Positions 17,956 to 63,913 of a stretch of 64,000 nucleotides of DNA are shown in pieces (the first letter of the stretch is position 1; each line of letters starts with the position of its first letter). The notes beneath the pieces are model-generated. The model saw only the letters and a program-made list of their open reading frames with translations. It did not search any database and had not been told where the DNA came from. The stretch is from Candidatus Pacearchaeota archaeon (lineage in GTDB: Archaea; Nanobdellota; Nanobdellia; Pacearchaeales; GW2011-AR1), in contig JAGVXH010000004.1 of the NCBI GenBank assembly GCA_018303845.1, positions 261,165 through 325,164 of the forward strand, read 5' to 3'. A program made the translations under genes and the position numbers.

Positions 17956-18621
17956 ATGAAAAGAGAAATAATAATTCTATTACTAATAACACTAATCTTG
18001 CCAATAGCAACGGCCGACCAAGACGTAAATCCAAAGGATTTACTGGCCACACCCCCAAACCTCCAAACCATAAAAACCCCAGATTCTGCAAAGCCAAATC
18101 TCAATGTCTGGAATGAAACCGTCATAATCTCTCCAACCTGGCAAACCCTCATAGGAACTTTCTTTGGATTAAACCTAAAAAACGTCTCAACCGAAATCTC
18201 CGTAAGAGAAGCCCTCGTCCTATTCCTAATTTTTATAATGTTCTTCATGATAATCTCAGATATCCTAAGTCTAACTCCATTCTTCAAAACAAACTTCGGT
18301 CCAATATCAGCAGAATTCCTAGCAGCTCTAATTATTACAATCCTCGTCTCAATCTCAGGCTCCTTCATTAATCTCAAAAATATCTTCATCAACGCAATAT
18401 TCTACACAATAACAGCTCTCGACTGGGACTGGTTAAACTATCTAACTCAAAACAAAGTCCCAGGAATCATAATCACAATTTTCATAATAATCCCCATCTT
18501 ATTTGTTATACATGAAATCTTCGACTTTTTAGAACCAATCATAAAAAAACATTCTCAAGTCTCAAAAGCAGAAAGCAAAGGTCGACTTCTAAATTCAGCA
18601 ATAGAAAAGTCGGGCATCTAA
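17956..18621 (+). CDS. membrane protein, member 2 of the 5-gene cluster
   Basis: MKREIIILLLITLILPIATA signal-like N-terminus, multiple TM segments and a charged tail. The antisense ORF 17892-18392 is rejected. Confidence 0.6.
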   Translation: MKREIIILLLITLILPIATADQDVNPKDLLATPPNLQTIKTPDSAKPNLNVWNETVIISPTWQTLIGTFFGLNLKNVSTEISVREALVLFLIFIMFFMIISDILSLTPFFKTNFGPISAEFLAALIITILVSISGSFINLKNIFINAIFYTITALDWDWLNYLTQNKVPGIIITIFIIIPILFVIHEIFDFLEPIIKKHSQVSKAESKGRLLNSAIEKSGI

Positions 18622-22769: not shown

Positions 22770-24020
22770 ATGGATAATTTATGTATAAGGTGCAAGGGGA
22801 AAGGATTATGCGGTTACCCGTGCAGAATTCTGGCCAGATTCAAAGACAATGCCCCAAAACCAAAACTTCACTTCTCCGGCAAATCAGCACCTGAACTTTT
22901 CGTCGGAAGAATCGGCTACCCTTACATCAACGCCGGAATCCTAACGCCTCAAGACAACGACAACATCTCAAGCTTTCCCTCGGCGGAAGAATGGTCAACC
23001 CAAAATTTTTCCATAGCAAATGTCCTAAGACTCCGAGGTCAACTAATTTACGGCAAAGCACAAACCCACATAAAAATCCCAGACAAAATAAAACAAGTTA
23101 CCCAAGAGTTAGCATTATCATCAAAACCAGTCTCAACCGAAATCTTCCTAAAGAAAAAACCAACAATGCAATTTACAGTAGACAAAGTTTTCCAGCCAAT
23201 GACAAACCCAGCGCCTCTAATAAAAGCAGTCCTCGAAGAAAACCCCTTCGTCCCAAAACAAGTAGACTACCTAATCAATGACACCGATGCAAAGTCAGTA
23301 GACGTAATTAACGAACTCTACAAAGACAAAATAAAAATAGACCATCTCCAAAAACTTTTATCAATCGGACTCCTAGGGAAAAGGGCAAATCGCAGAATGG
23401 TTCCAACAAGATGGAGCATAACAGCAACCGACGACACAATATCAAAAGAACATCTAAAAAAAATAAGATACTTTGGGCAGTTAAATCAAATAACATTATA
23501 TTCAGGAAATTTCCTAGGTAACTATATCGAAGCGTTACTTCTCCCCGGCTCGTTTGCATTCGAAGCAATAGAATCATGGCAAGAAGGTTCCACTTACGCT
23601 CCAGAAGAAGCCGAACAAGTCGGATCCAAACCCCCAAACCCCCAAACCCCCAAACCCCCAAAATTTTTAATATCTCAGGACTATGAAAATTTCAGTGGTC
23701 GCAAGGCTTACGCGTTCAATGTCACAGGAGGCTACTACGCAATGCGCCTTCCCCTAACCGAACACCTAATGAAAATACAAAGACAAGCAAGTGTTCTAAT
23801 ATTTCGAGAAATTAAGCCAGAATATTATGCGCCTCTAGGAGTAGGAATAGTTCGAGAAACAGCCAAGAGAACATTTTCTAATCTACCAAAACATTTTAAT
23901 ACAATAGAAGAAGTATTAAGTGATATGCAAACAAGAATAGAAACTCCAATAGAAACCATAAAACAAAAATCCTGGCTTCTAAGCAACTACGGAAAACAAA
24001 AAACAATTTTCGATTTCTAA
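22770..24020 (+). CDS. nre: Nre-family (DUF650/DUF651) archaeal DNA-repair-associated protein
   Basis: N-terminal CIRCKGKGLCGYPC zinc-like cluster, ELFVGRIGYPYINAGILTP, and RRMVPTRWSITATDD. Contains the in-frame (CCCCCAAA)4 insert encoding KPPNPQTPKPPK. Confidence 0.65.
   Translation: MDNLCIRCKGKGLCGYPCRILARFKDNAPKPKLHFSGKSAPELFVGRIGYPYINAGILTPQDNDNISSFPSAEEWSTQNFSIANVLRLRGQLIYGKAQTHIKIPDKIKQVTQELALSSKPVSTEIFLKKKPTMQFTVDKVFQPMTNPAPLIKAVLEENPFVPKQVDYLINDTDAKSVDVINELYKDKIKIDHLQKLLSIGLLGKRANRRMVPTRWSITATDDTISKEHLKKIRYFGQLNQITLYSGNFLGNYIEALLLPGSFAFEAIESWQEGSTYAPEEAEQVGSKPPNPQTPKPPKFLISQDYENFSGRKAYAFNVTGGYYAMRLPLTEHLMKIQRQASVLIFREIKPEYYAPLGVGIVRETAKRTFSNLPKHFNTIEEVLSDMQTRIETPIETIKQKSWLLSNYGKQKTIFDF
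23626..23663. repeat. (CCCCCAAA)4 tandem repeat inside nre
   Basis: Direct reading gives ccaaacccccaaacccccaaacccccaaacccccaaaa. The G-rich strand is the minus strand. Confidence 0.95.
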
Positions 24021-25041: not shown

Positions 25042-25647
25042 TCAACCACCTAACCCAATCAACATCCCCTCAATAATCCCAGCCATAACAAGCAAAGGAA
25101 AAACAACAAAAACAAAAAACCTCAGGCCCTCTCTAAAAACATATTCAACATCTCTTTCTCTACTTAATCCCCCAAACCCCCAAACCCCCAAACCCCCGAC
25201 TTCGGCCCCCAGCCGAAGTCCCATCCCAATAGAAAACAAAACAGCCGGCAACTCGAAAATCCCATGAGGGAAAATCTTCCACATCGTCAAAATACCCTCC
25301 TGAACAACAGCCTCTCGTGCAACAAATCCAAGCAAATACCCATTAACAATACAAACCACGACAGGCAAAATCCCAAGCCCAATTCCAAAAACAAAAGCCA
25401 TAAAACTCGCCTTCAAATTATTTAAAAAAATAAAGCCAATCAATTCTAAGGTAGAAAGTCCCTCAAGCTCCGCCATCAGCATCTTAATCATCTCAATAAT
25501 CTCAGTCCTGAAAAAAACAGGAAAAGCAAACCCAATTAAAAAAAACAAACTGAATAACCCAAGAGCTACAACAAAAAACCATCGGCATTCCAAGAAAAAT
25601 CTCCAACACTTACTATAATTCTCAATAAAAAATCCTCTTCTCTTCAT
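25042..25647 (-). CDS. SpoIIM-like (DUF95) integral membrane protein
   Basis: FIFLNNLKASFMAFVFGIGLGILP....NGYLLGF and FPHGIFELPAVLFS motifs. Carries the in-frame repeat-derived insert GGLGVWGFGGLSRE. Confidence 0.65.
   Translation of the reverse strand: MKRRGFFIENYSKCWRFFLECRWFFVVALGLFSLFFLIGFAFPVFFRTEIIEMIKMLMAELEGLSTLELIGFIFLNNLKASFMAFVFGIGLGILPVVVCIVNGYLLGFVAREAVVQEGILTMWKIFPHGIFELPAVLFSIGMGLRLGAEVGGLGVWGFGGLSRERDVEYVFREGLRFFVFVVFPLLVMAGIIEGMLIGLGG
25169..25220. repeat. (CCCCCAAA)3CCCCC followed by a perfect 9-bp hairpin, in frame in the SpoIIM-like gene
   Basis: C-run at 25169-25197. Stem gacttcggc (25198-25206) pairs with gccgaagtc (25212-25220). Confidence 0.9.
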
Positions 25648-25789
25648 GATTAGGTATGAGTTAGGAACTATATAAAATTACTCCAAACACAAAATGGCAA
25701 CCTATGGTAACCATTATGGAAAACAAAAAAATCGCTATAGGTCATTTAAATCCAAATCCTAAAAACATCTATCCGTCAAAATATCTTCC

Positions 25790-25848
25790 ACCAAACCAAA
25801 CCCTCAAACCCCCCCTCGAGATATTTTTTATCGACTAAAATATCTCGA
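25790..25848. repeat. CCAAACC/C7 run followed by a perfect 12-bp hairpin at the rhomboid 3' end
   Basis: ccaaaccaaaccctcaaaccccccc at 25790-25815. Stem tcgagatatttt (25816-25827) pairs with aaaatatctcga (25837-25848). The reconstructed rhomboid stop (25828-25830) lies in the loop. Confidence 0.9.
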
Positions 25849-26489
25849 TATCATCTCTGTTTTCTTAGGAAACTTCATTTTCAAATAAAATCCATATCCA
25901 AGTCCAACAAGTAATCCGCCAAGATGCGCAGTATTCCCAATCGGCAACCCAAGTCCTAAAGACAATGCCCAAAGCGAATAATAAAGAAAACTAAAACAGG
26001 AAGCTTGGGAGTTAACACAGCCAAAAGTCCACCCAAAGCAAAAACAGCGCCACTAGCACCGACGGCATAAACATCCATATCAATCCCGCTAAAGTGAGCG
26101 ATCAAAACAAAAAACAACCCAGCAAAAAGTCCGCCACCCATATATAACCAAAGAAACCTTTTCCTCCCAATCAACTTCTCGACGAAACTTCCGATAAACA
26201 TTAACGAAACCATATTCACAAACAGATGCCCAAGACTGGCATGCATAAACATACTCGTAATAAAAGTCCAAAGTCCTTTGCCCGACAAAATATTAGCAGG
26301 CATCAATGCAACCCAAGAAATAGCAGAATCTTCACTTGTGACCGTAATCAGAATTAAAAAACAAAGAAAGGCTACAACATTAGCTGCAATCAAAATACTA
26401 GTATAAGAAAAATCAGGGCTAATACTTCTCTTCTTCAACGGGCGCCGAACAACATTTCCATTAGATTTTTGTTTAAACCATTGTCCCAT
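25828..26489 (-). pseudogene. rhomboid intramembrane serine protease, reading frame broken by a 1-nt indel (or a sequence error)
   Basis: The tracked ORF (25956-26489) has HxxxN (GHLFVNM) and GASGA but stops at ..FFIIRFGHCL*. The next frame continues ..LWALSLGLGLPIGNTAHLGGLLVGLGYGFYLK...* with the catalytic His motif. The shift lies near 25974-25980. Confidence 0.7.
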
Positions 26490-27299
26490 TTACTTTGTCC
26501 CAGAAAGCTTCTTCTTCAGTTTATTCGCCAAACTCAAACTTTTTTCTCCGCCTGCTTTCTTCACAACCTTCTTCACAACCTTCTTCACAACCTTCTTCAC
26601 AACCTTCTTCACAACCTTCTTCACAACCTTCTTCTCTTCTTTTTTGCTATCGGCAATATTTTTTCTAGCAACAGCCCTAGCAGTTTTAATTAAATCAGTT
26701 TTTTCTTTCTTCTCCTTATCTAATTTAGACTCGGCTCTCTTCCTGGAAGTTTCCGATTTCTTCCTAACAACTTCAAGCTCCCCATGAATCAAATCCAAAT
26801 TCTTTTTAATTCGAGCAATTTTCATTTTAACTTCACGAATAGGTTTTGTATTATCACTTAATTCATAAATATCTGCACATTCTTCACAGCTAAACCCATG
26901 CTCCAAAGCTTTCTCCTCGCCAACTTCAATATCACAAGACTTACAAACATAAAACCGCTTCGTTTCTCGACTACCAAGTGCTCCTTCAAGCGATGCAATT
27001 TTTCCAATCAAAGAACTCTCTAGCTTTGCCAAGCATTTTTCCGCATCTAATGTCCAGTAATAAATATACCAACCTTTCCTCTTATCTTTTTTTCTAATAA
27101 ATGAAACCAAATTATCAGCCGATAATTTATATAAAATATTTCTAACTTGATTAATCGTCAACTCCATTTTTTTTGCAATCAAAAATTCATTAACATCTTT
27201 CTTCCTAAATAAAATCTCGACAATCCTACCAGTTCCCTCTCCGGCCATTTCCTCGACGAGATCATGTAGAAGTTTAACTTGCATTTCAAACAAAATCAA
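26490..27299 (-). CDS. tfe: transcription factor E, alpha subunit (TFIIE-alpha homolog)
   Basis: N-terminal winged helix (EFLIAKKMELTINQVRNILYKLSADNLV..RKGWYIYYW) and Zn ribbon (C-K-S-C...C-E-E-C). The C-terminal K/V-rich tail contains a 12-nt repeat. Confidence 0.8.
   Translation of the reverse strand: MILFEMQVKLLHDLVEEMAGEGTGRIVEILFRKKDVNEFLIAKKMELTINQVRNILYKLSADNLVSFIRKKDKRKGWYIYYWTLDAEKCLAKLESSLIGKIASLEGALGSRETKRFYVCKSCDIEVGEEKALEHGFSCEECADIYELSDNTKPIREVKMKIARIKKNLDLIHGELEVVRKKSETSRKRAESKLDKEKKEKTDLIKTARAVARKNIADSKKEEKKVVKKVVKKVVKKVVKKVVKKVVKKAGGEKSLSLANKLKKKLSGTK
26557..26628. repeat. 6 perfect copies of the 12-nt unit ttcttcacaacc, encoding (VVKK)6 in the TFE tail
   Basis: Direct reading of the sequence. 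Confidence 0.95.
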
Positions 27300-28074: not shown

Positions 28075-28452
28075 ATGGCTTCCGCAGAGGAACTCTTCAT
28101 CTCGGTTTCTCCTCAATTTTACAGGCAGAGTAAGTCCTCAGGACTAATGAGTCAGGCTGAACTTCTCCATTCCTTAAAACATCTCAGAAACCTATCAGTT
28201 CTCGCTCGCCAAAAAAACGATCTTAGAAAAAACTTCCATAAATTATTATCTTCGACACTAAAACAAATTAACGCAATTCAAGATAAAATGCCAACGCCAC
28301 AAATTCCAAAAACAATTTTAAGACATGAGGAGCAACTCTCAAAATCAAAGCTAGAACCAAGGCCAGAAGTCAAGAAAACATTTTCAAAACGAGACGAGAT
28401 TGAAGAAGAGCTCTTATTGATACAGGCCAAACTTAAGGAACTAAATTCTTAA
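28075..28452 (+). CDS. hypothetical coiled-coil protein
   Basis: 125 aa, starting 4 nt after the previous gene. Its last codons lie in the first copy of the 55-bp tandem repeat. Confidence 0.45.
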   Translation: MASAEELFISVSPQFYRQSKSSGLMSQAELLHSLKHLRNLSVLARQKNDLRKNFHKLLSSTLKQINAIQDKMPTPQIPKTILRHEEQLSKSKLEPRPEVKKTFSKRDEIEEELLLIQAKLKELNS

Positions 28453-28670
28453 CTCACCAGAGTTACCTACAGGGTAAAACCAGTTTTTAAGATTCCCAAA
28501 TTCTTAACTCACCAGAGTTACCTACAGGGTAAAACCAGTTTTTAAGATTCCAAAATTCTTAACTCACCAGAGTTACCTACAGGGTAAAACCAGTTTTTAA
28601 GATTCCAAAATTCTTAACTCACCAGAGCTACCTACAGGGTAAAACCAGTTTTTAAGATTCCCAAATTCTT
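28446..28670. repeat. 55-bp tandem repeat, 4 copies plus a partial fifth start
   Basis: The unit ttcttaactcaccagagttacctacagggtaaaaccagtttttaagattcc(c)aaa starts at 28446, 28501, 28556 and 28611, with ttctt again at 28666. There are 1-2 substitutions per copy. Confidence 0.95.
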
Positions 28671-28696
28671 AAAAACCCTCATCTCTAAGTTATAAA

Positions 28697-32603: not shown

Positions 32604-35516
32604 TCACTCTAAATAAATAGAAGCCATTCCGGGTTTGGCTTTGTTCGCTCGTCCAGCAGGATCAATCTTTGTTGAATCATTCACCGCAAAAACCGCAACT
32701 TCTCTAATATCTAATTTCGAATCCCTAATATCTCGAAGAATTTTTTCTTTATCAATCTGACCAATCTCAAACGGCATCACATAAACATAAACTTTCTTTG
32801 TATCCGATTTTAAAATTCCTTTAATTCTCTCAACAATCTTTTCATTTAATCCTTCGCCACTTATCTTTTGCCCCTTATTCTTTATAACTTTCTCGTCAAC
32901 CTTAGGCCAACTGGCAACCGAAATCAATCCCTTTTCCCCAATCTTCTCCCACAATTCCTCCGCGACATGCGGGCAAATCGGAGCAATCAACTTCAAAAAT
33001 TTCAAGCCACTATCTTTAGAACATCCCTTCTCTAACTCCCCAAACAATTCCCGAATCTCAATCGTTGCCTTCCGATATTCAAAACTATCATAATAATTCC
33101 CAATATTTTTAATACAAAGATTCAGCTTAGAAACTAACTCCTCAGAATCTTTTCCGCCTACAAACGAATCATAAAACTCGAAGACTTTCTTAATGAAACG
33201 AGTAGCTCCAAGTATACCCTTTTCCGACCAATCAAAATCCTTATCCGGACTAGCAACCGAAATCAAAAACCATCGCGTTGCATCCACCCCGTATTTCTTC
33301 ATTGTCTCAATTGGCTCAACAACATTTCCAAGACTTTTCGACATCTTCCGCCCATCCTCAGCATGAAGCATCCCCTGATGAAACAACTTCAAAAACGGCT
33401 CGTCAAAATCAAGCGCACCAATATCCCTCAAAAACTTAACATAAAACCGAGAGTAAAGCAAATGCATACAAGCATGTTCAGCCCCGCCAATATAAACATC
33501 AACCGGGTTCCAATACTTCACCTTATCAAAATCAAAAATCTTTTTCGAATTTTTAGGGTCAGCATATCTCAAAAAATACCAACTCGAATTAACAAACGTA
33601 TCCATCGTGTCACTTTCTCGTCGACCTTTCCCACCACACTTCGGGCATTTACAATTCAACCACTCACTATTAGTCTCAAGCGGATTGCCCTTCCCAAACT
33701 TAACCTCCTTAGGTAAAACAACAGGCAAATCTTTTTCAGGGACTGGCACAGCACCACACCCATCACAATAAACAATCGGAATCGGCGTCCCCCAATATCT
33801 CTGACGACTAACTCCCCAATCTCGTAACTTAAAATTCACAACTCGCTTAGCATTACCTTTTCCCGCTAACCAATTCGTAATATCCGTCTTTGCTTCCAAG
33901 CTACTCATGCCACTAAACTGCTTAGACGCCATCAAAACACCATCATCGACAAACGCTTCTTTCCCGGTATACCTATTCTTAAAATCCAAAGGATCCTTAT
34001 TCGTAACAACCTGCCGAACAGAAATCCCATACTTCTTCGCAAACTCAAAATCCCTCTTGTCATGCGCCGGAACTCCCATAACCATACCACTCCCATAATC
34101 AGCCAAAACAAAATTTCCAATCCAAATCGGAACTCTCTCACCATTTGCCGGATTAACCGCATAACTCCCGCTAAAAACCCCTTCCTTCTCTCGCCTCTCA
34201 ATATCCTTCTCCGAAACAGAATTCATTTTCCTCAAATATTCATCAACAGCTAATCGCTGCTCATTCGTCACCAACTCATCTAACTTATCATGCCCAGCCG
34301 CAACAACCATAAACGTAACCCCAAAAATCGTATCCGGCCTAGTCGTAAAAACCTTCCAAACATTTCCAGATTCGCGCGCATTGGCGGAAATTTGTGGCTT
34401 AATCTTGGAGTCAATAAATTCTTTCACCTTCTTAACATCTCCATTATAAGGCACAACATCAATTCCCAAAGATTTAGCAGAGTCAACTCCATCCTCAGAG
34501 TGTTCAAAATAAACAACATTTTCTTTTTTCAAATTGAATTCCTCTAAAACTTTTTCATAATACTTAGGAGAACTCTTTTTCGGATTAAACTCCGTAGTAA
34601 AAATCTCATAATCCTTAACCTTCCCAAAAAACAAATCAAACTTACTTTTAGGAGCCATAGTCAAAACAATCTTCCTATTAGGCAAAGAATCCAAATAATT
34701 CTTCAACTCTTGATTAACGTTTCCTTTTTCATCAACCAAACAATGAACAGCATCAACTAAAATAACTTTATCTGTGCTAATCTGTGAAATCTGTGGCTCA
34801 CCCCCAGAAATTTCGAAAGAAATTTCCGTCCCTTCGCTTCGCCCAATCCAATTCCTCTGCATAGTCTTAGTCCTCTCAGGCCAGTCAATTCTTTCTAAAT
34901 CATTAAGCAACTCCTCAGCATATTCAGTCGTCCTAAAAAACCACTGCCGAAGCTTTCGAACCTCAACATCAGTATCCTCGTGTCTCCAGCATTTTCCTTC
35001 ATTGACCTGCTCATTCGCCAAAACCGTATCACACTTAGGACACCAATTTACCGAAGCTTCCTTTTGATAAGCCAACCCCTTTTCAAGCATCTTCAAAAAA
35101 ATCCACTGGTCCCACTTATAATATTCACTATTCGCAGTATTAACCATTCGTGACCAATCATAAGAAACACCAAGTGCTCTCTGTTGCTTTACAAAATTTT
35201 CAATCGCATCATTAGTATACTTCTCTGGGTCAACCCCAGCCTTAATCGCAGCATTTTCCGCAGGAAGCCCCAAAGCATCAAACCCCATAGGATGCAAAAC
35301 ATTGAAACCTTTCATAATCTTAAACCGAGCCAAAATATCTCCAATCGTATAATTCAAAGCATGTCCCATATGAAGCCCAGCCCCGGAAGGATAAGGAAAC
35401 ATTTCCAAAACATAAAATTTTTCTTTTCCAGAATCTTCACTAATCTCAAAAACCCTTTTCTCTTCCCAAGTCTTCTGCCACTTTTTCTCTATACTTACAA
35501 AATCAATTTCATCCAT
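32604..35516 (-). CDS. leuS: leucine--tRNA ligase, bacterial type, with an extra in-frame insert of about 143 aa
   Basis: PYPSGAGLHMGHALNY (HIGH), RNWIGRSEG, TTRPDTIFG, the CP1 editing region and KMSKS. 970 aa; the insert lies at 34368-34796 between RSEGTEISF and VFTTRPDT. Confidence 0.9.
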   Translation of the reverse strand: MDEIDFVSIEKKWQKTWEEKRVFEISEDSGKEKFYVLEMFPYPSGAGLHMGHALNYTIGDILARFKIMKGFNVLHPMGFDALGLPAENAAIKAGVDPEKYTNDAIENFVKQQRALGVSYDWSRMVNTANSEYYKWDQWIFLKMLEKGLAYQKEASVNWCPKCDTVLANEQVNEGKCWRHEDTDVEVRKLRQWFFRTTEYAEELLNDLERIDWPERTKTMQRNWIGRSEGTEISFEISGGEPQISQISTDKVILVDAVHCLVDEKGNVNQELKNYLDSLPNRKIVLTMAPKSKFDLFFGKVKDYEIFTTEFNPKKSSPKYYEKVLEEFNLKKENVVYFEHSEDGVDSAKSLGIDVVPYNGDVKKVKEFIDSKIKPQISANARESGNVWKVFTTRPDTIFGVTFMVVAAGHDKLDELVTNEQRLAVDEYLRKMNSVSEKDIERREKEGVFSGSYAVNPANGERVPIWIGNFVLADYGSGMVMGVPAHDKRDFEFAKKYGISVRQVVTNKDPLDFKNRYTGKEAFVDDGVLMASKQFSGMSSLEAKTDITNWLAGKGNAKRVVNFKLRDWGVSRQRYWGTPIPIVYCDGCGAVPVPEKDLPVVLPKEVKFGKGNPLETNSEWLNCKCPKCGGKGRRESDTMDTFVNSSWYFLRYADPKNSKKIFDFDKVKYWNPVDVYIGGAEHACMHLLYSRFYVKFLRDIGALDFDEPFLKLFHQGMLHAEDGRKMSKSLGNVVEPIETMKKYGVDATRWFLISVASPDKDFDWSEKGILGATRFIKKVFEFYDSFVGGKDSEELVSKLNLCIKNIGNYYDSFEYRKATIEIRELFGELEKGCSKDSGLKFLKLIAPICPHVAEELWEKIGEKGLISVASWPKVDEKVIKNKGQKISGEGLNEKIVERIKGILKSDTKKVYVYVMPFEIGQIDKEKILRDIRDSKLDIREVAVFAVNDSTKIDPAGRANKAKPGMASIYLE

Positions 35517-37584: not shown

Positions 37585-40227
37585 TTATTTCTCTAATCTC
37601 TTGTTAAGTTCCCTAACCCTATCCCTCAAATACATCGCCCTCTCAAAATCAAGCATCTCCGCAGCCTCCCTCATATCAGCCTCCAACTCAATAATAACAT
37701 TCTTCACTTCCGCCTTAGGTATACTCTTAGTATCCTTAATCTCAATCTTCTTATCTCTTATAGGTTTTACAATCGTCATCGGCGTAATCCCATGTTTCAA
37801 ATTATAAGCAATCTGTTTCGCCCGCCTTCTCTCAGTTTCCTTAATCGCTTCCTTAATCGACCCAGTAACAACATCAGCATACAAAACAACTTTAGCCTCC
37901 GAATTCCGAGCAGCCCTCCCAATTATCTGAATCAAACTTCTCTTATCTCGCAAGAACCCCTCCTTATCAGCGTCAAGCACCCCAACAAATCCAATCTCCG
38001 GAATATCAATTCCCTCTCGCAATAAATTAATCCCAACAAGTACATCAAACTTACCCAACCGTAGCTCCCGCAAAATCTCCGTCCTCTCAAACGTATCAAT
38101 CTCCGAATGCATATACCGACACTTAACCCCATTCTCCCCCAAAAAATCCGTCAACTCCTCCGCCATCCTCTTAGTAAGAGTCGTAAGCATAACCCGAAAC
38201 CCCTTCTTAACAGCCTTATCAATCTCAACCAAACAATCCCTCACCTGCCCCCCATAAGATTCGCGTCCATTCGCGGCTAAAATCTCACCCAGCAACTCAG
38301 AAAACTCCATGTTCTCACCATTCCCCCTGTTTGTAAAATGTCCCCTATCTTTCAATACAACAGACTTAACACCAAGCGCCTTAGAATAAATTTTAACAGA
38401 TTCTCTAATGCTCTTAGCATCATCAGAAGATTCAATTATAACAATGTCAGAAACTCTATTTGAAATTTTTTTATCAATCTTAAAATCATAAAACTCCTCA
38501 GCCTCCCATTCCTCCGTCCCCTTGTTCTTACAAGCAGCCGCAACCAAAATCAACTTCTTAACCTTCCTCTTAGTTTGCCCAAGCCACCGAACCAAAAAAG
38601 CCGCACCGGCACTAGCCCCAACCAAAACAGAATTCTCATCAACATCAATCTTTTCAAACTCTGCCTTCCACTTCTCATAATCAGGCTTCCAATTCTCAGG
38701 CATCAAAGGAGTAAATACGGCAGCACCTTTTTTCTCAAGTTCTGACTTAATCCAAGGAAACCAATTTCTTTCATTCTGCTCAGGCAAGCTATACCTCTTC
38801 ATATTCTCTCTATCATTAGGATTGGCCCCATGCACAATAACAACATTCCCCAAGCCCCCAGCGCAGCTGAGCTCTTCCACCGAAGGTGAGCCCTTCCGAC
38901 CACGAGCCCTTCCAGCAGAGCTGAGCCCCTCCGTAGAACTAATAGGTCGAATTTCGACCTCGGGATCAATTAGTCCTGTAGGCCTAATTATCTGTTCTAC
39001 GACGTTAGAAGAGCAACGCTCTTCGTATTCCCCAGGCGTCGCACTCACAAAAACAGTCGAATTCCCCTTCATATACTTTTCAAACTCACCAAACTTCAAC
39101 GGCCGATTGTCATATGCCGAAGTCAACCGAAATCCATAATCAATCAAATTCTTCTTCCGTGCCCGGTCCCCATTAAACATACCACCAACCTGCGGAACCG
39201 ACCGATGACTCTCGTCAATAATAAAAAGAAAATCCCCCTTAGGAAAATAGTCAAGCAAACAAAAAGCCTGTTCACCCTCACGCCTTCCATCAAAATGCCG
39301 CGAATAATTTTCAATTCCCTTGCAAGTCCCAGTCTCCTTCAACATCTCCAAATCATAAAGCGTCCTCTGTTTCAACCGATGTTTAACCAACTCATCGCTA
39401 ATCTCAGCCAAGTCAATCTTCAACTGTTCCCGAATTTCCAAAGCAGCCTTATCAAAAACACTCTCTGGCACAACATAATTACGCGCAGGCCAAACATGAA
39501 AATACTTCATATCACTAAGCTTCTCACCAGTCACCTTATCAATCTCAAAAATTTTCTCAACCTCATCTCCAAAAAATTCAATCCTAATAATATTTTCCGA
39601 ATATCCAGGAATAAAATCAATAACATCTCCCTTAACTCTGAAGCGCCCTTGAATTAAATCCAAATCATTCCGTTCAAAAGCTCCACTAACCAACTTCCCA
39701 ATAAAATCCTTCCTTCCAATCTTCTCGCCAACTTCAACAGGAAACCCCATAGACCGAAACATTTTAGGGTCACTCATTCCATAAATACAACTAACACTCG
39801 CAACAACAATAACGTCACTTCGAGTCAAAAGACTAGCAACAGTCGCATGCCTCATCATCTCAATTCGCGGATTAATCGCCGAATCTTTCTCAATATACTG
39901 ATCCTTCGCAGGCAAATAACTCTCCGGCTGATAATAATCATAATACGAAATAAAATACTCAACCCGGTTCTCAGGAAAAAACTCCCGCATCTCCTCATAA
40001 AGCTGAGCCGCAAGTGTCTTATTATGGGCCAAAATCAAAGTAGGCCTCCCAACCTTCGCAATAACATTCGCCATCGTAAAAGTCTTCCCTGACCCAGTCA
40101 CACCCAAAAGAGTCTGCATATTCTTACCTTCTCGGATCCCATCAACTAAACCAGCAATCGCCACAGGCTGGTCCCCAGTAGGTTTAAACTTCGATTTCAA
40201 CTTAAACTTTCGCTTTTCAATTTCCAT
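37585..40227 (-). CDS. uvrB: excinuclease ABC subunit B with an in-frame alpha/beta serine-hydrolase domain insert of about 229 aa
   Basis: GVTGSGKTFTMA, YYDYYQPE, DESH, TTLTKRMAEELT, the helicase C motifs and a UVR domain. 880 aa versus the usual ~660; the insert lies at about 38254-38943. Confidence 0.9.
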   Translation of the reverse strand: MEIEKRKFKLKSKFKPTGDQPVAIAGLVDGIREGKNMQTLLGVTGSGKTFTMANVIAKVGRPTLILAHNKTLAAQLYEEMREFFPENRVEYFISYYDYYQPESYLPAKDQYIEKDSAINPRIEMMRHATVASLLTRSDVIVVASVSCIYGMSDPKMFRSMGFPVEVGEKIGRKDFIGKLVSGAFERNDLDLIQGRFRVKGDVIDFIPGYSENIIRIEFFGDEVEKIFEIDKVTGEKLSDMKYFHVWPARNYVVPESVFDKAALEIREQLKIDLAEISDELVKHRLKQRTLYDLEMLKETGTCKGIENYSRHFDGRREGEQAFCLLDYFPKGDFLFIIDESHRSVPQVGGMFNGDRARKKNLIDYGFRLTSAYDNRPLKFGEFEKYMKGNSTVFVSATPGEYEERCSSNVVEQIIRPTGLIDPEVEIRPISSTEGLSSAGRARGRKGSPSVEELSCAGGLGNVVIVHGANPNDRENMKRYSLPEQNERNWFPWIKSELEKKGAAVFTPLMPENWKPDYEKWKAEFEKIDVDENSVLVGASAGAAFLVRWLGQTKRKVKKLILVAAACKNKGTEEWEAEEFYDFKIDKKISNRVSDIVIIESSDDAKSIRESVKIYSKALGVKSVVLKDRGHFTNRGNGENMEFSELLGEILAANGRESYGGQVRDCLVEIDKAVKKGFRVMLTTLTKRMAEELTDFLGENGVKCRYMHSEIDTFERTEILRELRLGKFDVLVGINLLREGIDIPEIGFVGVLDADKEGFLRDKRSLIQIIGRAARNSEAKVVLYADVVTGSIKEAIKETERRRAKQIAYNLKHGITPMTIVKPIRDKKIEIKDTKSIPKAEVKNVIIELEADMREAAEMLDFERAMYLRDRVRELNKRLEK
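38869..38932. repeat. 4 copies of GAGC(C/T)C(T/C)TCC at 16-19 nt spacing, in frame at the N-terminal border of the UvrB insert
   Basis: Copies start at 38869, 38888, 38904 and 38923. On the minus strand they encode EGLSSAGRARGRKGSPSVEELS. Confidence 0.9.
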
Positions 40228-40270: not shown

Positions 40271-41908
40271 TCACTCCCGAATCTTCTTGCCCCGAAGCAA
40301 CCTCTGATAACCAATCGCAAACCGATGTGCCTCATCCCGAATCTCAATCAACAATTTTAAAGCCCCACTCTTTTTATCTAGCCTAACCTCTCTTCCCAAA
40401 CCCCCATGCCCCCATACCCCCAAATCCCCATCTTGCCGTTTTGGCAAGATTACAGTCTCTTCGGCCTTAGCCAAACCAATAACCTCAATTCCCAATTTCA
40501 ATTCCTCCAAAACCCCAACCGCAACCCCAAGTTGCCCCTTCCCTCCATCAACAACAATCAAATCCGGGGCCTCCATTTTTTCATCCCGAGCTTCCGAACT
40601 CCCAATCCCCCGAACTTCCGCCAAGCGATGATATCGTCGCGAGATAACTTCCCTCATCGCAGCATAATCGTCATTAACATCCCCGCCACGAATTCGAAAC
40701 TTCCGATAATTACTTTTATCCGCAACACCATCCCTAAACTGAACCATCGAAGCAACAACATCAGTCCCACTCAAATGCGAAACATCAAAACACTCAATCA
40801 CTCTAGGCAACTTAATCAATCCCAACTTCTCCTTCAACTCCTTAACCTTATCAACATTCCCAAAAACCGCCAAATCAACATTCTTCTTCACAAGCTCCAA
40901 TAGCTTAACTTTCTCTCCCATCTTTGGCACAACAACTTTTCCGCCAAGTCTCTCAATAAATTCCTTCAATCCAGAATCAACATCTTCGGGCAACACAACC
41001 TCTTTTGGACAATCATAGTCCGAATAAAACTGAACCAAAAATTCCTCCAAAAAATTAGGACTCCAATCAAACTCAAAAAACTGCTTATTCTCTAGTATAC
41101 CTCTTCTAGCATTAAACAAAATCAAGTATACCTTATCTCCAGAAATAATCCAATTAATAAAATCCTCATCATACTTCTTATCCCTCTCCATCTTCTGCTT
41201 CTCACCCAAATCCTTAATCGCCCTAATCTGCTCTCTCAAAATAAGCGCTCTCTCAAAATCTTTGTCAATAGAAAATCCTTTCATTCTCTTCGACAAAATC
41301 TCAACAACAGCCTTAGTCTTGCCCTTCAAAACCATTTCGGCATTCTTAACATTCTCCAAATAATCCGTCTTGCTAATCTTCCCCTCGCACGGTCCAGAAC
41401 AAAGTCCAATCTGAAACCTCATACAAACTTTTTTAGGCAACTTTACGCAAGTTCGAATCTTAAAAATTTTCCTAAGCGCATGCAAAACATAATCTCTCGA
41501 CATCCCAGAAACAAACGGCCCATAAAATCTCGAAGCTCTTTCTAATTTCGAATCTCTAATCTCTAATCTCTTTCGTGCAATCAAAAGTCGCGGGAACATT
41601 TCTCCCGTGACTTGCACGAACGCATACCTCTTGCTATCCTTCAAGTCAATATTATATTTAGGCTTATACTTCTTAATCAAATTATTCTCCAATATCAAGG
41701 CCTCAACCTCAGAATCCGTAACAACAAATTCAACAGAATCAATATGTGAAACCAAAACATTAGTCTTAACAGACTCGTGCTCTTTAGCAAAATAACTCTT
41801 AACTCGGTTTACCAAACTCTTCGCTTTTCCAACATAAATAACTTTATCCTTAGAATCCTTAAACAAATAACATCCAGGATTTTTAGGAATTTCCTTTAGA
41901 TTAATCAT
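40271..41908 (-). CDS. uvrC: excinuclease ABC subunit C
   Basis: GIY-YIG N-terminus ([24 protein letters not shown]), a UVR-like segment, the endonuclease domain (ECFDVSH) and C-terminal IRDEAHRFAI. Contains two repeat-derived in-frame inserts. Confidence 0.9.
   Translation of the reverse strand: MINLKEIPKNPGCYLFKDSKDKVIYVGKAKSLVNRVKSYFAKEHESVKTNVLVSHIDSVEFVVTDSEVEALILENNLIKKYKPKYNIDLKDSKRYAFVQVTGEMFPRLLIARKRLEIRDSKLERASRFYGPFVSGMSRDYVLHALRKIFKIRTCVKLPKKVCMRFQIGLCSGPCEGKISKTDYLENVKNAEMVLKGKTKAVVEILSKRMKGFSIDKDFERALILREQIRAIKDLGEKQKMERDKKYDEDFINWIISGDKVYLILFNARRGILENKQFFEFDWSPNFLEEFLVQFYSDYDCPKEVVLPEDVDSGLKEFIERLGGKVVVPKMGEKVKLLELVKKNVDLAVFGNVDKVKELKEKLGLIKLPRVIECFDVSHLSGTDVVASMVQFRDGVADKSNYRKFRIRGGDVNDDYAAMREVISRRYHRLAEVRGIGSSEARDEKMEAPDLIVVDGGKGQLGVAVGVLEELKLGIEVIGLAKAEETVILPKRQDGDLGVWGHGGLGREVRLDKKSGALKLLIEIRDEAHRFAIGYQRLLRGKKIRE
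40395..40450. repeat. degenerate (CCCCCAWA)4 run followed by an 8-bp hairpin, in frame in uvrC
   Basis: cccaaacccccatgcccccatacccccaaatcccc at 40395-40429. Stem atcttgcc (40430-40437) pairs with ggcaagat (40443-40450). Encodes ILPKRQDGDLGVWGHGGLG. Confidence 0.9.
41541..41570. repeat. TAATCTC-type run, in frame in uvrC
   Basis: tctaatttcgaatctctaatctctaatctc encodes RLEIRDSKLE. This is inserted between the conserved FPRL..R and YFGPF segments. Confidence 0.85.
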
Positions 41909-43253: not shown

Positions 43254-43287
43254 AAAATCCGTGTAATCCGTGTAATCTGTGGCTAAA
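43254..43287. repeat. AATCCGTGT x2 plus AATCTGTGGCTAAA directly behind the uvrA stop
   Basis: aaaatccgtgtaatccgtgtaatctgtggctaaa. The uvrA stop is at 43297-43299. Confidence 0.9.
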
Positions 43288-47317: not shown

Positions 47318-47423
47318 AATAAAAATAACAAAGCTGCACCAGCAATCTAATTTCTAATTTATAAAATCTAATCTCGATGAAAAAGAAGTAACTTTAAAAA
47401 CAAATTAGTTCTTTTTCATTTAC

Positions 47424-47583
47424 GCTCGCATAGTCTAGTGGCCAAGGATTCCACCCTCTCAAGACCAGTGGGAAGTCCTAGTCGATGAGACAACGACTTC
47501 ATGTTCTCTTGAACAACCACGGGATCTCTCCGAGATTCATTTGGAGAACGGTGGCGACCCGGGTTCAAATCCCGGTGCGAGCG
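47424..47583 (+). tRNA. tRNA-Glu(CUC) with an intron of about 87 nt 3' of the anticodon
   Basis: Acceptor GCTCGCA/TGCGAGC, D-arm GTCT-AGTGGCCAA-GGAT, and anticodon stem CCACC (47451-55) pairing with GGTGG (47550-54). The loop CTCTCAA gives anticodon CTC. T-arm is CCGGG-TTCAAAT-CCCGG, discriminator G, and no encoded CCA. Confidence 0.8.
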
Positions 47584-56451: not shown

Positions 56452-56572
56452 AAAATCCGTGTAATCCGTGTAATCTGCGGCTAAATAATTAACAAAATCC
56501 AAAAACAAAATCTGCGTAATCTGCGTAATCTGCGGCTAAATAATTAACAATCAATCCAAAAAAAATCCGTGC
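56452..56572. repeat. two tandem ~44-nt units (AATCYGYGT x3 + GGCTAAATAATTAACAA) plus a partial third, behind the helicase gene
   Basis: 56452-56495 is aaaatccgtgtaatccgtgtaatctgcggctaaataattaacaa. 56507-56550 is aaaatctgcgtaatctgcgtaatctgcggctaaataattaacaa. 56560-56572 is aaaaatccgtgcc. Confidence 0.95.
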
Positions 56573-63847: not shown

Positions 63848-63913
63848 CCTAATCTCTAATCTCTATCATCTAATCTCTATCATCTAATCTCTAACATCTA
63901 ACCCCTAACCCCT
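63848..63913. repeat. TAATCTC / CTAACCC-type motif run behind a minus-strand stop codon
   Basis: Direct reading gives cctaatctctaatctctatcatctaatctctatcatctaatctctaacatctaacccctaacccct. Confidence 0.9.

Follow-up and report, generated by a model that had tools for sequence, protein, structure and literature searches.

Hairpin-associated G5T3 tandem repeats in a Candidatus Pacearchaeota genome and their possible origin by template switching and slippage

A 64 kb stretch of a Candidatus Pacearchaeota genome from groundwater of the Rifle aquifer (the window, meaning the whole stretch of DNA analysed) carries short tandem tracts of a unit of five guanines and three thymines (G5T3), most of which lie inside genes and touch a perfect hairpin. 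The genome is represented in many assemblies, the longest contig measuring 964,825 bp. We propose, with a probability of about 0.55, that the G5T3 tracts are hypermutable tandem repeats, produced by replication template switching and by slippage beside hairpins and then filtered to permissive sites in which the reading frame is kept. On the best explanation of the data, the tracts are neither telomeric repeats nor a discrete mobile element, and they were not selected as protein motifs. The evidence comes from the arrangement of the tracts in the window, from their orthologous sites in relatives and from their instability between near-identical genomes.

Hairpins and repeats in the window and its lineage

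An initial annotation of the window had listed four copies of the repeat, in nre, in a SpoIIM-like gene, in uvrC and at the 3′ end of a rhomboid gene. All four are real and in place; two more had been missed, one at 18047-18069 in gene 17956-18621 and the other a G5T remnant in leuS. The copies and their hairpins are as follows (coordinates in nucleotides, nt, of the window; the strand is that on which the feature is read).

18025-18069, in gene 17956-18621 (plus strand): weak tract CCACACCCCCAAACCTCCAAACC at 18047-18069, with an 8-bp hairpin at 18025-18043 (stem GTAAATCC).
23626-23662, nre tract: (CCAAACCC)4.6, within a 54-nt insert (23616-23669, minus strand), without a hairpin.
25169-25197, SpoIIM-like gene tract: (CCCCCAAA)3CCCCC in plus-strand letters; on the minus strand (GGGGGTTT)3.6 with four G5 runs, in frame.
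25198-25220, minus strand, SpoIIM-like hairpin: GACTTCGGC/CCCCA/GCCGAAGTC, 9-bp stem and 5-nt loop, directly 5′ of the tract.
25788-25815, minus strand, rhomboid 3′ tract: decayed G7TTTGAGGGTTTGGTTTGGTGG, just 3′ of the gene (C-rich on the plus strand).
25816-25848, minus strand, rhomboid 3′ hairpin: TCGAGATATTTT/9-nt loop/AAAATATCTCGA, 12-bp stem, with the native stop codon (25828-25830) in the loop.
34770-34826, minus strand, leuS site: hairpin GAAATTTC/TTTC/GAAATTTC (34807-34826, 8 bp), then TGGGGGT and (CACAGATT)2.7.
40395-40429, minus strand, uvrC tract: degenerate GGGGATTTGGGGGTATGGGGGCATGGGGGTTTGGG, part of a 13-amino-acid (aa) insert DLGVWGHGGLGRE.
40430-40450, minus strand, uvrC hairpin: ATCTTGCC/GTTTT/GGCAAGAT, 8-bp stem and 5-nt loop, directly 5′ of the tract.

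Matches to CCCCCAAACCCCC with at most two mismatches number 15 in the window, all on the plus strand, against 2.5 ± 1.6 in dinucleotide shuffles (0 of 100 reached 15). Five of the seven G-run tracts touch perfect hairpins of 8–12 bp, and the 64 kb hold only 16 distinct stems of at least 8 bp. Such stems occur in 0.48% of 39-nt windows, so that finding one at three of five tracts corresponds to p ~1e-6. The coupling of tracts to hairpins is thus stronger than had been claimed, and the order described for it, hairpin and then repeat when read on the minus strand, was seen at the SpoIIM-like gene, rhomboid and uvrC. The copy at 18025-18069 is the sole one in the window with reversed polarity, its hairpin lying 3′ of the tract on the G/T-rich strand, and the longest stem found at the nre tract was 4 bp.

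Six of the seven G-run tracts lie inside open reading frames (ORFs), and 8-nt units, the length of which is not a multiple of three, are found within the ORFs of nre, the SpoIIM-like gene, uvrC and gene 17956-18621. Besides G5T3, the window holds GGNNGTTC and AGAGATT repeat families. A scan of 17 kb outside the window gave no further G5T3 copy, and this flanking sequence has one additional hairpin followed by (GTTCGGAA)2.2. Rfam at gathering thresholds over the window returned a single tRNA and nothing else, so no known RNA family lies at the tracts. An assembly artefact was rejected, as the tracts recur in independent JGI, ENA, Logan and NCBI assemblies and, in altered form, in a sister strain, and the 37-nt nre tract is far below assembler k-mer size.

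The same arrangement recurs across the lineage. In a clade census, 41 repeats with units of 6–9 nt and at least 2.8 copies were read on the G/T-rich strand and searched for a perfect stem of at least 7 bp within 36 nt. A perfect hairpin lies directly 5′ of the repeat in 12 of the 41 and 3′ in 2, with a background of 1.27% (binomial p ~1e-13; sign test p = 0.013). Neither this lineage-wide polarity nor the hypermutability of the tracts had been anticipated in the initial annotation. Hairpin sequence and repeat unit both vary between sites, and the related loci are rich in 7–8-nt repeats of about four copies, with units such as GGTTTTT, TCGGTGG, AGTAAGT, TTAATGG, GGTTCGGG and GGGATTT. Three hairpin-to-repeat cases are antisense within plus-strand genes, indicating that the polarity is a property of the DNA strand and not of the mRNA (the 18047 window copy excepted). 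As a negative control, species-representative genomes were scanned for GGGGGTTTGGGGGTTTGGGGG, giving 8-nt arrays in Bacteroidota, Saprospiraceae, Planctomycetota and others; among the matches listed, G5T3 tracts of these unrelated phyla had a hairpin upstream in 3 of 127 and downstream in 6 of 127, with no association.

Across the window GC skew is uniformly extreme, at −0.3 to −0.5 per 2-kb interval, and is negative even across stretches of plus-strand genes; most genes of the window lie on the minus strand, the G/T-rich one. The skew of close relatives is alike (0.25–0.40), and more distant Pacearchaeota and Woesearchaeota loci range from 0.08 to 0.14. A comparable strand disparity has been described in a Microgenomates bacterium (PMC7143001). 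The distant relatives L146, L148 and L149 (L-numbers denote the compared assemblies or loci) have 0–1 such repeats per 21 kb; skew is low in L148 and L149 and high in L146.

Insertion sites and unit changes in related genomes

The tracts had been proposed to be insertions, and alignments at nre, uvrC and the rhomboid 3′ end agree; because orthologs without them exist, the tracts can be regarded as insertions in permissive loops. In nre (22770-24020, plus strand) the 54-nt insert sits in the linker between the Nre_N and Nre_C domains. It is missing at seven related loci (L121, L122, L126, L127, L129, L130 and L133), and the equivalent insert of L125 and L120 contains C4A4 and CACCA4 units. In uvrC (40271-41908, minus strand) hardly any of the ~25 aligned relatives has the 13-aa insert, and five sites are empty at the DNA level, with neither hairpin nor repeat in the relatives concerned; the hairpin of the window falls in the codons I-L-P-K-R-Q-D. 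Relatives and solved UvrC structures confirm that this site is a variable loop, as had been supposed.

In the SpoIIM-like gene (25042-25647, minus strand; Pfam SpoIIM) the tract encodes GGLGVWGFGG in a variable loop, at which all relatives hold some other 7–8-nt repeat. Its hairpin spans the codons G-L-R-L-G-A-E-V; L128 has the same 8-bp stem with another repeat, L126 shows a compensatory G-C to A-T change and L131 has a different stem, TGCGAC/GTCGCA, at this position. The rhomboid C-terminus, MISRYFSR and the stop, is conserved everywhere, with the 5′ arm of the hairpin consisting of the native S-R-Y-F codons and with the 3′ arm and tract placed in a ~135-nt block that is missing from L136. 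At the leuS site, L147 has the same hairpin followed by (CGGGGGTT)4.4 and L121 has GAAATCTC/GAGATTTC followed by (GGTTCGGG)4. The stem sequence therefore differs at each site and its 5′ arm is native coding sequence, contradicting the idea that the hairpin belongs to a conserved inserted element. Likewise, the peptides GGLGVWGFGGLS and GDLGVWGHGGLG had been read correctly in the SpoIIM-like protein and UvrC, but their convergence is trivial: they are alike because an identical DNA repeat is translated in an identical frame. In nre the other strand of the repeat is read, giving PPNPQTPKPPK.

Comparison of near-identical genomes showed that the tracts are unstable. The window and the near-identical L001 and L002 have no substitutions over 20.5 kb aligned, with four indels, of which three are whole repeat units, among these a single G5T3 unit in nre. 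The nre tract has three units in L001 and four in the window and L002, and the 3-unit allele splits the gene into ORFs of 302 aa (Nre_N) and 92 aa (Nre_C). In the sister strain L141 (~93% identity to the window) all four nre units are changed, from AAACCCCC to AAATCCCC, with identical flanks. The rhomboid 3′ site of L141 has four G5 runs in a clean G5T3 register, then TTTGGTTTGGTGG, with the same hairpin, and is 14 nt longer than in the window. The SpoIIM-like element is identical across six assemblies and L141, and neither this tract nor that of uvrC varies in unit number across assemblies or in the sister strain. L141 thus combines a changed nre unit, GGGGATTT, with an unchanged SpoIIM-like unit, GGGGGTTT, from which it follows that the tracts homogenise independently and that a common template is ruled out.

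Other length changes were observed nearby. A 55-nt unit occurs in 4.2 copies (98% identical) at 28443-28672, in the interval from a small ORF to alaS, and L001 and L141 have two units fewer. The TFE-alpha homolog (26490-27299) contains a 12-nt repeat at 26557-26634 encoding (VVKK)n in 6.5 copies, with four fewer in L001 and L141. In rhomboid (25828-26489) the window is missing 40 nt at ~25975 in comparison with L001, L002 and L141, giving a frameshift in a protein that is intact (233 aa) elsewhere; this loss is either a true deletion allele or an assembly error.

Two further repeat-derived inserts of uvrC and several larger insertions were also found in these genes.

40589-40621, minus strand, second uvrC insert: 8-nt period GGAAGTTC GGGGGATT GGGAGTTC GGAAGCT, encoding AEVRGIGSSEA.
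41541-41571, minus strand, third uvrC insert: (AGAGATT)4.4.

The site of the second insert holds another 7-nt repeat in L138 and is empty in L137. AGAGATT is a second dispersed family, with further copies at 32703-32733 (leuS), 47346-47372 and 63849-63913, and the uvrC and leuS copies have the irregular unit CGAAATT in common. LeuRS (leuS, 32604-35516) is 970 aa long and includes a 146-aa HAD-like segment at 34362-34799 (Pfam HAD_2, E = 1.8e-6); the segment occupies the exact leuS site of the hairpin and repeat of relatives, borders on the hairpin and repeat of the window itself and is flanked by the near-identical 11-mers CCACAGATTTC and CCACAAATTTC. In L121 a NUDIX domain is inserted at another place in LeuRS. 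The helicase of the uvrB product (37585-40227, 880 aa) is interrupted by a serine-hydrolase domain (Pfam PF06821, residues 485-632), which is also present in L138 and absent from L146 (660 aa) and L149 (645 aa), and uvrB contains a 75-nt insert of 19-nt periodicity at ~38865-38932.

Origin of the tracts and rival explanations

The hairpins appear to derive from the genes in which they lie. Wherever a hairpin can be resolved, its 5′ arm belongs to the native coding sequence, and the reverse complement of that arm, on the 3′ side, is missing at empty sites. At the codons that carry the hairpin of the window (I-L-P), the uvrC gene of L137 has a 9-bp hairpin of its own, TTTTTTTGC/GCAAAAAAA (V-F-L-P), and then (GGGATTT)4. 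Here PGRKS has become PVQKN at equal length, by six changes in 11 nt, each of which adds complementarity to the upstream codons. A neighbour-joining tree places the L137 UvrC (P0002) beside the empty-site P0003 and apart from the window, which suggests that the two uvrC hairpins are independent events at one hot spot. Similarly, the rhomboid 3′ arm matches its own Tyr-Phe codons in five lineages (including L121, L128, L126 and L135), with TAT/ATA in some and TAC/GTA in others, and lineage-specific arm matching, including G-C to A-T double changes, was found in the SpoIIM-like gene and leuS. Template-switch mutations are known to produce clustered multi-base changes into the reverse complement of a neighbouring segment, with perfect stems and apparent compensation in one step (PMC8794818). 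The changes at uvrC and rhomboid fit this published signature, as judged by comparing relatives.

The repeats, in turn, appear to start at the hairpin. The L137 unit GGGATTT resembles the native G-I codons GGGATT as in L147, the 7-nt repeat period of L128 extends into the hairpin arm and three G5T3 copies begin precisely at the hairpin base, which together suggest that the repeat was amplified locally, next to the hairpin. Tracts may also be copied from one another to some extent, given that one unit is used at several, often neighbouring, sites and that an irregularity is shared between AGAGATT copies.

From these data a sequence of four steps can be put forward. A template switch would copy a few native codons as their reverse complement, giving a perfect 7–12-bp hairpin in which the 5′ arm would be unaltered native sequence and the 3′ arm would stand in place of native sequence or behind it. 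The hairpin would then stall replication, probably when formed in the single-stranded G/T-rich strand, which judging by GC skew would be the lagging-strand template; the primer end may slip repeatedly on the 7–8 nt at the hairpin base, leaving 3–5 identical units. Within genes, the tracts that are seen all keep the frame by their total length and occupy permissive loops, which is why the same few sites carry different hairpin-repeat pairs across lineages. Finally, the tracts go on gaining and losing units and homogenise fast, sometimes with a frameshift of the host gene, as in nre.

Several observations weigh against this scheme. One unit is found at 5–7 sites in one genome, three of them within 2.2 kb, and AGAGATT has the same irregular unit in uvrC and leuS. 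Purely local slippage would not lead one to expect this; either templating by ectopic copies or convergent seeding by Gly/Val/Leu codons, which are common, has to be invoked. Hairpins persist with compensatory changes (the SpoIIM-like hairpin in L126; leuS in L121 versus the window), and the SpoIIM-like element has no substitutions relative to L141 when its flanks have 7 in 50 nt; both could reflect selection for function. The nre tract is without a hairpin and the 18047 copy has reversed polarity, several of the 12 hairpin-bearing repeats of the census are orthologous sites, leaving ~9 independent ones, and the order of hairpin and then repeat cannot be told apart from one complex event. Moreover, replication direction is taken from GC skew only, and the 3-unit nre allele is firm in one assembly (L001), with L004 ending within the tract.

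G-quadruplex formation was considered as a cause of the pattern. The SpoIIM-like, nre and uvrC tracts have at least four runs of at least three G with loops of 1–7 nt, in line with the sequence rule for an intramolecular quadruplex that was invoked in the initial annotation. ViennaRNA with G-quadruplex energies predicts a quadruplex beside an intact hairpin, with −65.5, −53.9 and −38.1 kcal/mol for the three tracts, respectively, compared with −17.6, −15.4 and −14.4 kcal/mol without these energies. The rhomboid tract no longer follows the rule in the window; its L141 copy does. On these predictions the quadruplex potential appears real and probably incidental. It is unnecessary for the pattern, since most sister repeats have no G-runs, and because many orthologous repeats of the lineage cannot form a quadruplex, we rate it as a possible contributor, which may add to stalling and thus to the persistence of repeats, and not as the cause.

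A related explanation is that hairpin and quadruplex, in DNA or mRNA, form a structured module selected as a pause, termination, mRNA-stability or translation-control element, like the Xanthomonas and Nostoc repeats near stops. Four complete G-runs in almost every G-run tract, the predicted quadruplex adjoining an intact hairpin, the hairpin-preserving changes at the SpoIIM-like gene, rhomboid and leuS and the unchanged SpoIIM-like element in L141 are all consistent with this. So are the rhomboid copy at a stop codon, some intergenic relatives with a hairpin and then (GGTTTTT)n past a gene end, and the four-unit preference and in vitro quadruplex formation reported by Rehm et al. (PMC4692102). 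However, the orthologous sites of relatives hold units incapable of forming a quadruplex (GTGTTTTG, GTTAGTA, TTAATGG and TCGGTGG), about four units is also typical of repeats lacking G-runs, polarity follows the G/T-rich strand in the three antisense cases, and compensatory change can be mimicked by template switching without selection (PMC8794818). With the majority of copies in arbitrary permissive loops within ORFs, a frameshifting nre allele known and terminator-like sites not in excess, we consider such a module unlikely.

We take a similarly doubtful view of contingency (phase-variation) loci, in which gain and loss of 8-nt units would reversibly switch genes such as that of the DNA-repair factor Nre, creating heritable diversity in host-dependent cells; this reading is compatible with the mutational origin proposed above. 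It would account for a unit length that is no multiple of three, for the 3- and 4-unit nre alleles in otherwise identical genomes and for repeats in several repair genes (nre, uvrC and uvrB; fen1 in L126), and simple-repeat phase variation is well documented in bacteria (PMC3315296). Against this, an out-of-frame allele occurs at one locus in essentially one assembly, whereas the SpoIIM-like and uvrC tracts are invariant across assemblies and in the sister strain, that of uvrC being stabilised by point changes that interrupt it. Nor is there an obvious gain from switching uvrC or leuS off, and the tracts lie in loops and linkers, not close to gene 5′ ends.

Improbable, in our judgement, is a mobile or ectopic element, a repeat cassette of ~30–55 nt entering hairpin-forming targets through a structure-specific enzyme or by templated repair from other tracts. 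The recurrence of one unit within a genome, with three copies in 2.2 kb, would be explained, as would reuse of a single unit at two nearby sites in L131/L135 and in L137, the irregular CGAAATT common to uvrC and leuS, and the precise junction of hairpin base and first G-run in three copies. Yet the inserts have no conserved ends, terminal inverted repeats or target duplications, and no direct repeats flank them; the stems GACTTCGGC, ATCTTGCC, TCGAGATATTTT, GTAAATCC and GAAATTTC differ from one another and consist in part of native codons, the native codons at the site can account for the unit, and the separate fates of the nre and SpoIIM-like units in L141 show that the copies are not homogenised by a common template. 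Gene tables for most of the window and for ~17 kb beyond it, together with scans of part of the other ORFs (~81 kb of a ~1 Mb genome in all), revealed no transposase, reverse transcriptase or Cas1. Protein-level selection for Gly/Trp-rich or Pro-rich low-complexity linkers, with the DNA repeat as a by-product, fits the position of the inserts in loops and linkers and the likeness of the SpoIIM-like and UvrC peptides. It is effectively refuted by the copy outside any ORF past the rhomboid stop and by the opposite-strand reading in nre; in addition, unrelated peptides occupy the same sites in relatives and changes in unit number break the frame. The structured module, contingency loci and ectopic or mobile copying are possible readings that partly overlap with template switching and slippage.

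Other candidates were rejected. The tracts do not have the form of an intrinsic terminator (a GC-rich hairpin with at least five T at a gene end), having T3 runs only and lying mostly inside ORFs, and terminator-like sites number 10 with 14.7 expected. They had been called telomere-like, which is a mere resemblance: telomeres are long arrays at the ends of linear replicons, and all copies here are internal to a contig of at least 206 kb, mostly in genes, with 3–5 units, and are part of a larger set of 7–8-nt repeats with many other units, the majority of them incapable of quadruplex formation. A telomerase-like trans-acting template would be expected to give one fixed unit, but in L141 nre changed its unit while the SpoIIM-like gene did not. 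Off-target Cas1 integration at cruciforms, FEN1-resistant flap ligation and P-nucleotide-like footprints were dropped for want of specific support, considering the arm loops, the tandem units and the lack of CRISPR genes in view.

Known systems, neighbouring features and biological meaning

A literature search found no earlier description of G5T3 repeats, DPANN tandem repeats or Pacearchaeota repeats. The closest families are heptamers of the Xanthomonas and Nostoc type, which overlap the cyanobacterial STRR heptamer repeats. Like these, the archaeal tracts are G-rich tandem units of 7–9 nt with variable copy number, quadruplex potential and a preference for four units, hence four G-runs, and some copies lie directly past stop codons on the sense strand. 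As a dispersed family of one G-rich unit with a mode of four, G5T3 has 5–7 copies in 64 kb, with about four G-runs each. In contrast to the dispersed quadruplex-forming heptamers of Rehm et al. 2015, GGGNATC in Xanthomonas and GGGGA(C/T)T in Nostoc, which are mainly intergenic and under-represented in ORFs, the present unit is an octamer, its host is an archaeon and its copies are mostly in frame in coding regions. It is also only one among many units of the lineage, and a unique perfect hairpin from local sequence typically flanks it, a feature not reported for the bacterial repeats (PMC4692102).

Hairpin-creating and hairpin-repairing template switches are related to the quasipalindrome-correction literature. 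The events seen here at uvrC (L137 and window), the rhomboid stop, the SpoIIM-like gene and leuS resemble those described by Monttinen and Loytynoja 2022, but their cases were isolated events in RNA genes, and here the hairpins are protein-coding with a tandem repeat systematically on one side (PMC8794818). As in bacterial simple sequence repeat contingency loci, ORFs contain tandem repeats the unit number of which appears to change far faster than point mutations accumulate and to shift the frame, and the 3- and 4-unit alleles of nre fit this description; the units are however 7–8 nt in place of 1–5 nt and lie in internal loops of archaeal housekeeping and repair genes in place of 5′ ends, with one locus out of frame (PMC3315296, PMC11868660). 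The tracts also share with Rickettsia palindromic elements the in-frame insertion of short repeated DNA into conserved genes of a reduced, host-dependent genome, with a surface peptide added and the protein kept. Those elements, attributed to Ogata et al. in Science in 2000, are reportedly mobile in-frame insertions forming families of 100–150 bp with conserved sequence and a palindrome of their own, unlike the present tandem repeats of 24–54 nt with site-specific and partly native hairpins. Telomeric and interstitial telomeric repeats have units such as T2G4, T4G4 and TTAGGG. The G-run and T-run units and quadruplex potential are common to both, and the L125 variant is (T4G4)n; unlike telomeric repeats, the tracts are internal, of 3–5 units, in an archaeon with no telomerase, and their unit varies among sites and strains.

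Outside this lineage, long (G5T3)n or (G4T4)n arrays were observed at or near contig ends of unrelated bacteria, as in L034 at 39-363 (OZ241847.1, a chromosome from a gammaproteobacterial metagenome-assembled genome; ~40 units), L013, L014 and L057, and the genomes of Bacteroidota KLAP56 and Saprospiraceae contain very many (GNNGGTTT)n arrays. In relatives of the window, GCTTCGC adjoins intergenic repeats (L121 2690-2800, L123 3120-3230, L126 1260-1360) and lies 3′ of rhomboid in L121, L128, L126 and L135; an example past a gene end reads GCGAAGC-NNNN-GCTTCGC, then (GGTTTTT)n and AGGGCTTCGCCC. The complement of this motif, GCGAAGC, we take to be a very stable DNA mini-hairpin. Intergenic 9-nt direct repeats AATCCGTGT, AATCTGCGT and AATCTGTGT (2.4–2.9 copies) lie at 43256-43281, 56454-56475 and 56509-56534, and also in L144 (~19700) and L128 (2042-2067); conserved in a relative and not oriented by the G/T strand, they resemble protein-binding or regulatory sites more closely than products of slippage. 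The tRNA reported by Rfam spans 160 nt (47424-47583, plus strand; 44.3 bits) and presumably contains an intron; ARAGORN found none in the window, and a repeat of (ATTAGAA) type lies upstream at 47346-47372. Immediately past the high end of the window, L142 12292-21242 holds a giant minus-strand gene of 8457 aa in one assembly and 8536 aa in another.

These tracts are of interest chiefly for what they show about how mutations arise and how protein insertions evolve in DPANN archaea. One recurrent polar architecture joins quadruplex-capable dispersed repeats, template-switch hairpins and hypervariable simple repeats in an uncultured archaeal lineage, offering an unusually clean natural record of DNA secondary structure seeding tandem repeats and of repeats turning into peptide loops of essential enzymes. 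Should the polarity follow replication, sequence alone could tell in which direction these genomes replicate and by which mechanism they mutate. The frameshift allele of nre is a possible case of repeat-driven phase variation in archaea, which is essentially undocumented, and at a practical level such tracts break assemblies and split gene calls in DPANN metagenome-assembled genomes. As a tentative idea, rather unlikely at present, a strand-polar process might repeatedly build modules of a perfect hairpin, taken from local codons, and a four-unit repeat, in many cases able to form a quadruplex; the modules would then switch the frame reversibly and let in larger insertions. For the latter role one can cite the HAD-like domain of LeuRS (146 aa), which lies exactly at a hairpin-repeat site. 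Such a process might require a particular polymerase or primase, or a deficiency in repair. If true, it would provide ultra-small symbiotic archaea with a built-in generator of diversity in proteins and expression, going beyond mutational debris.

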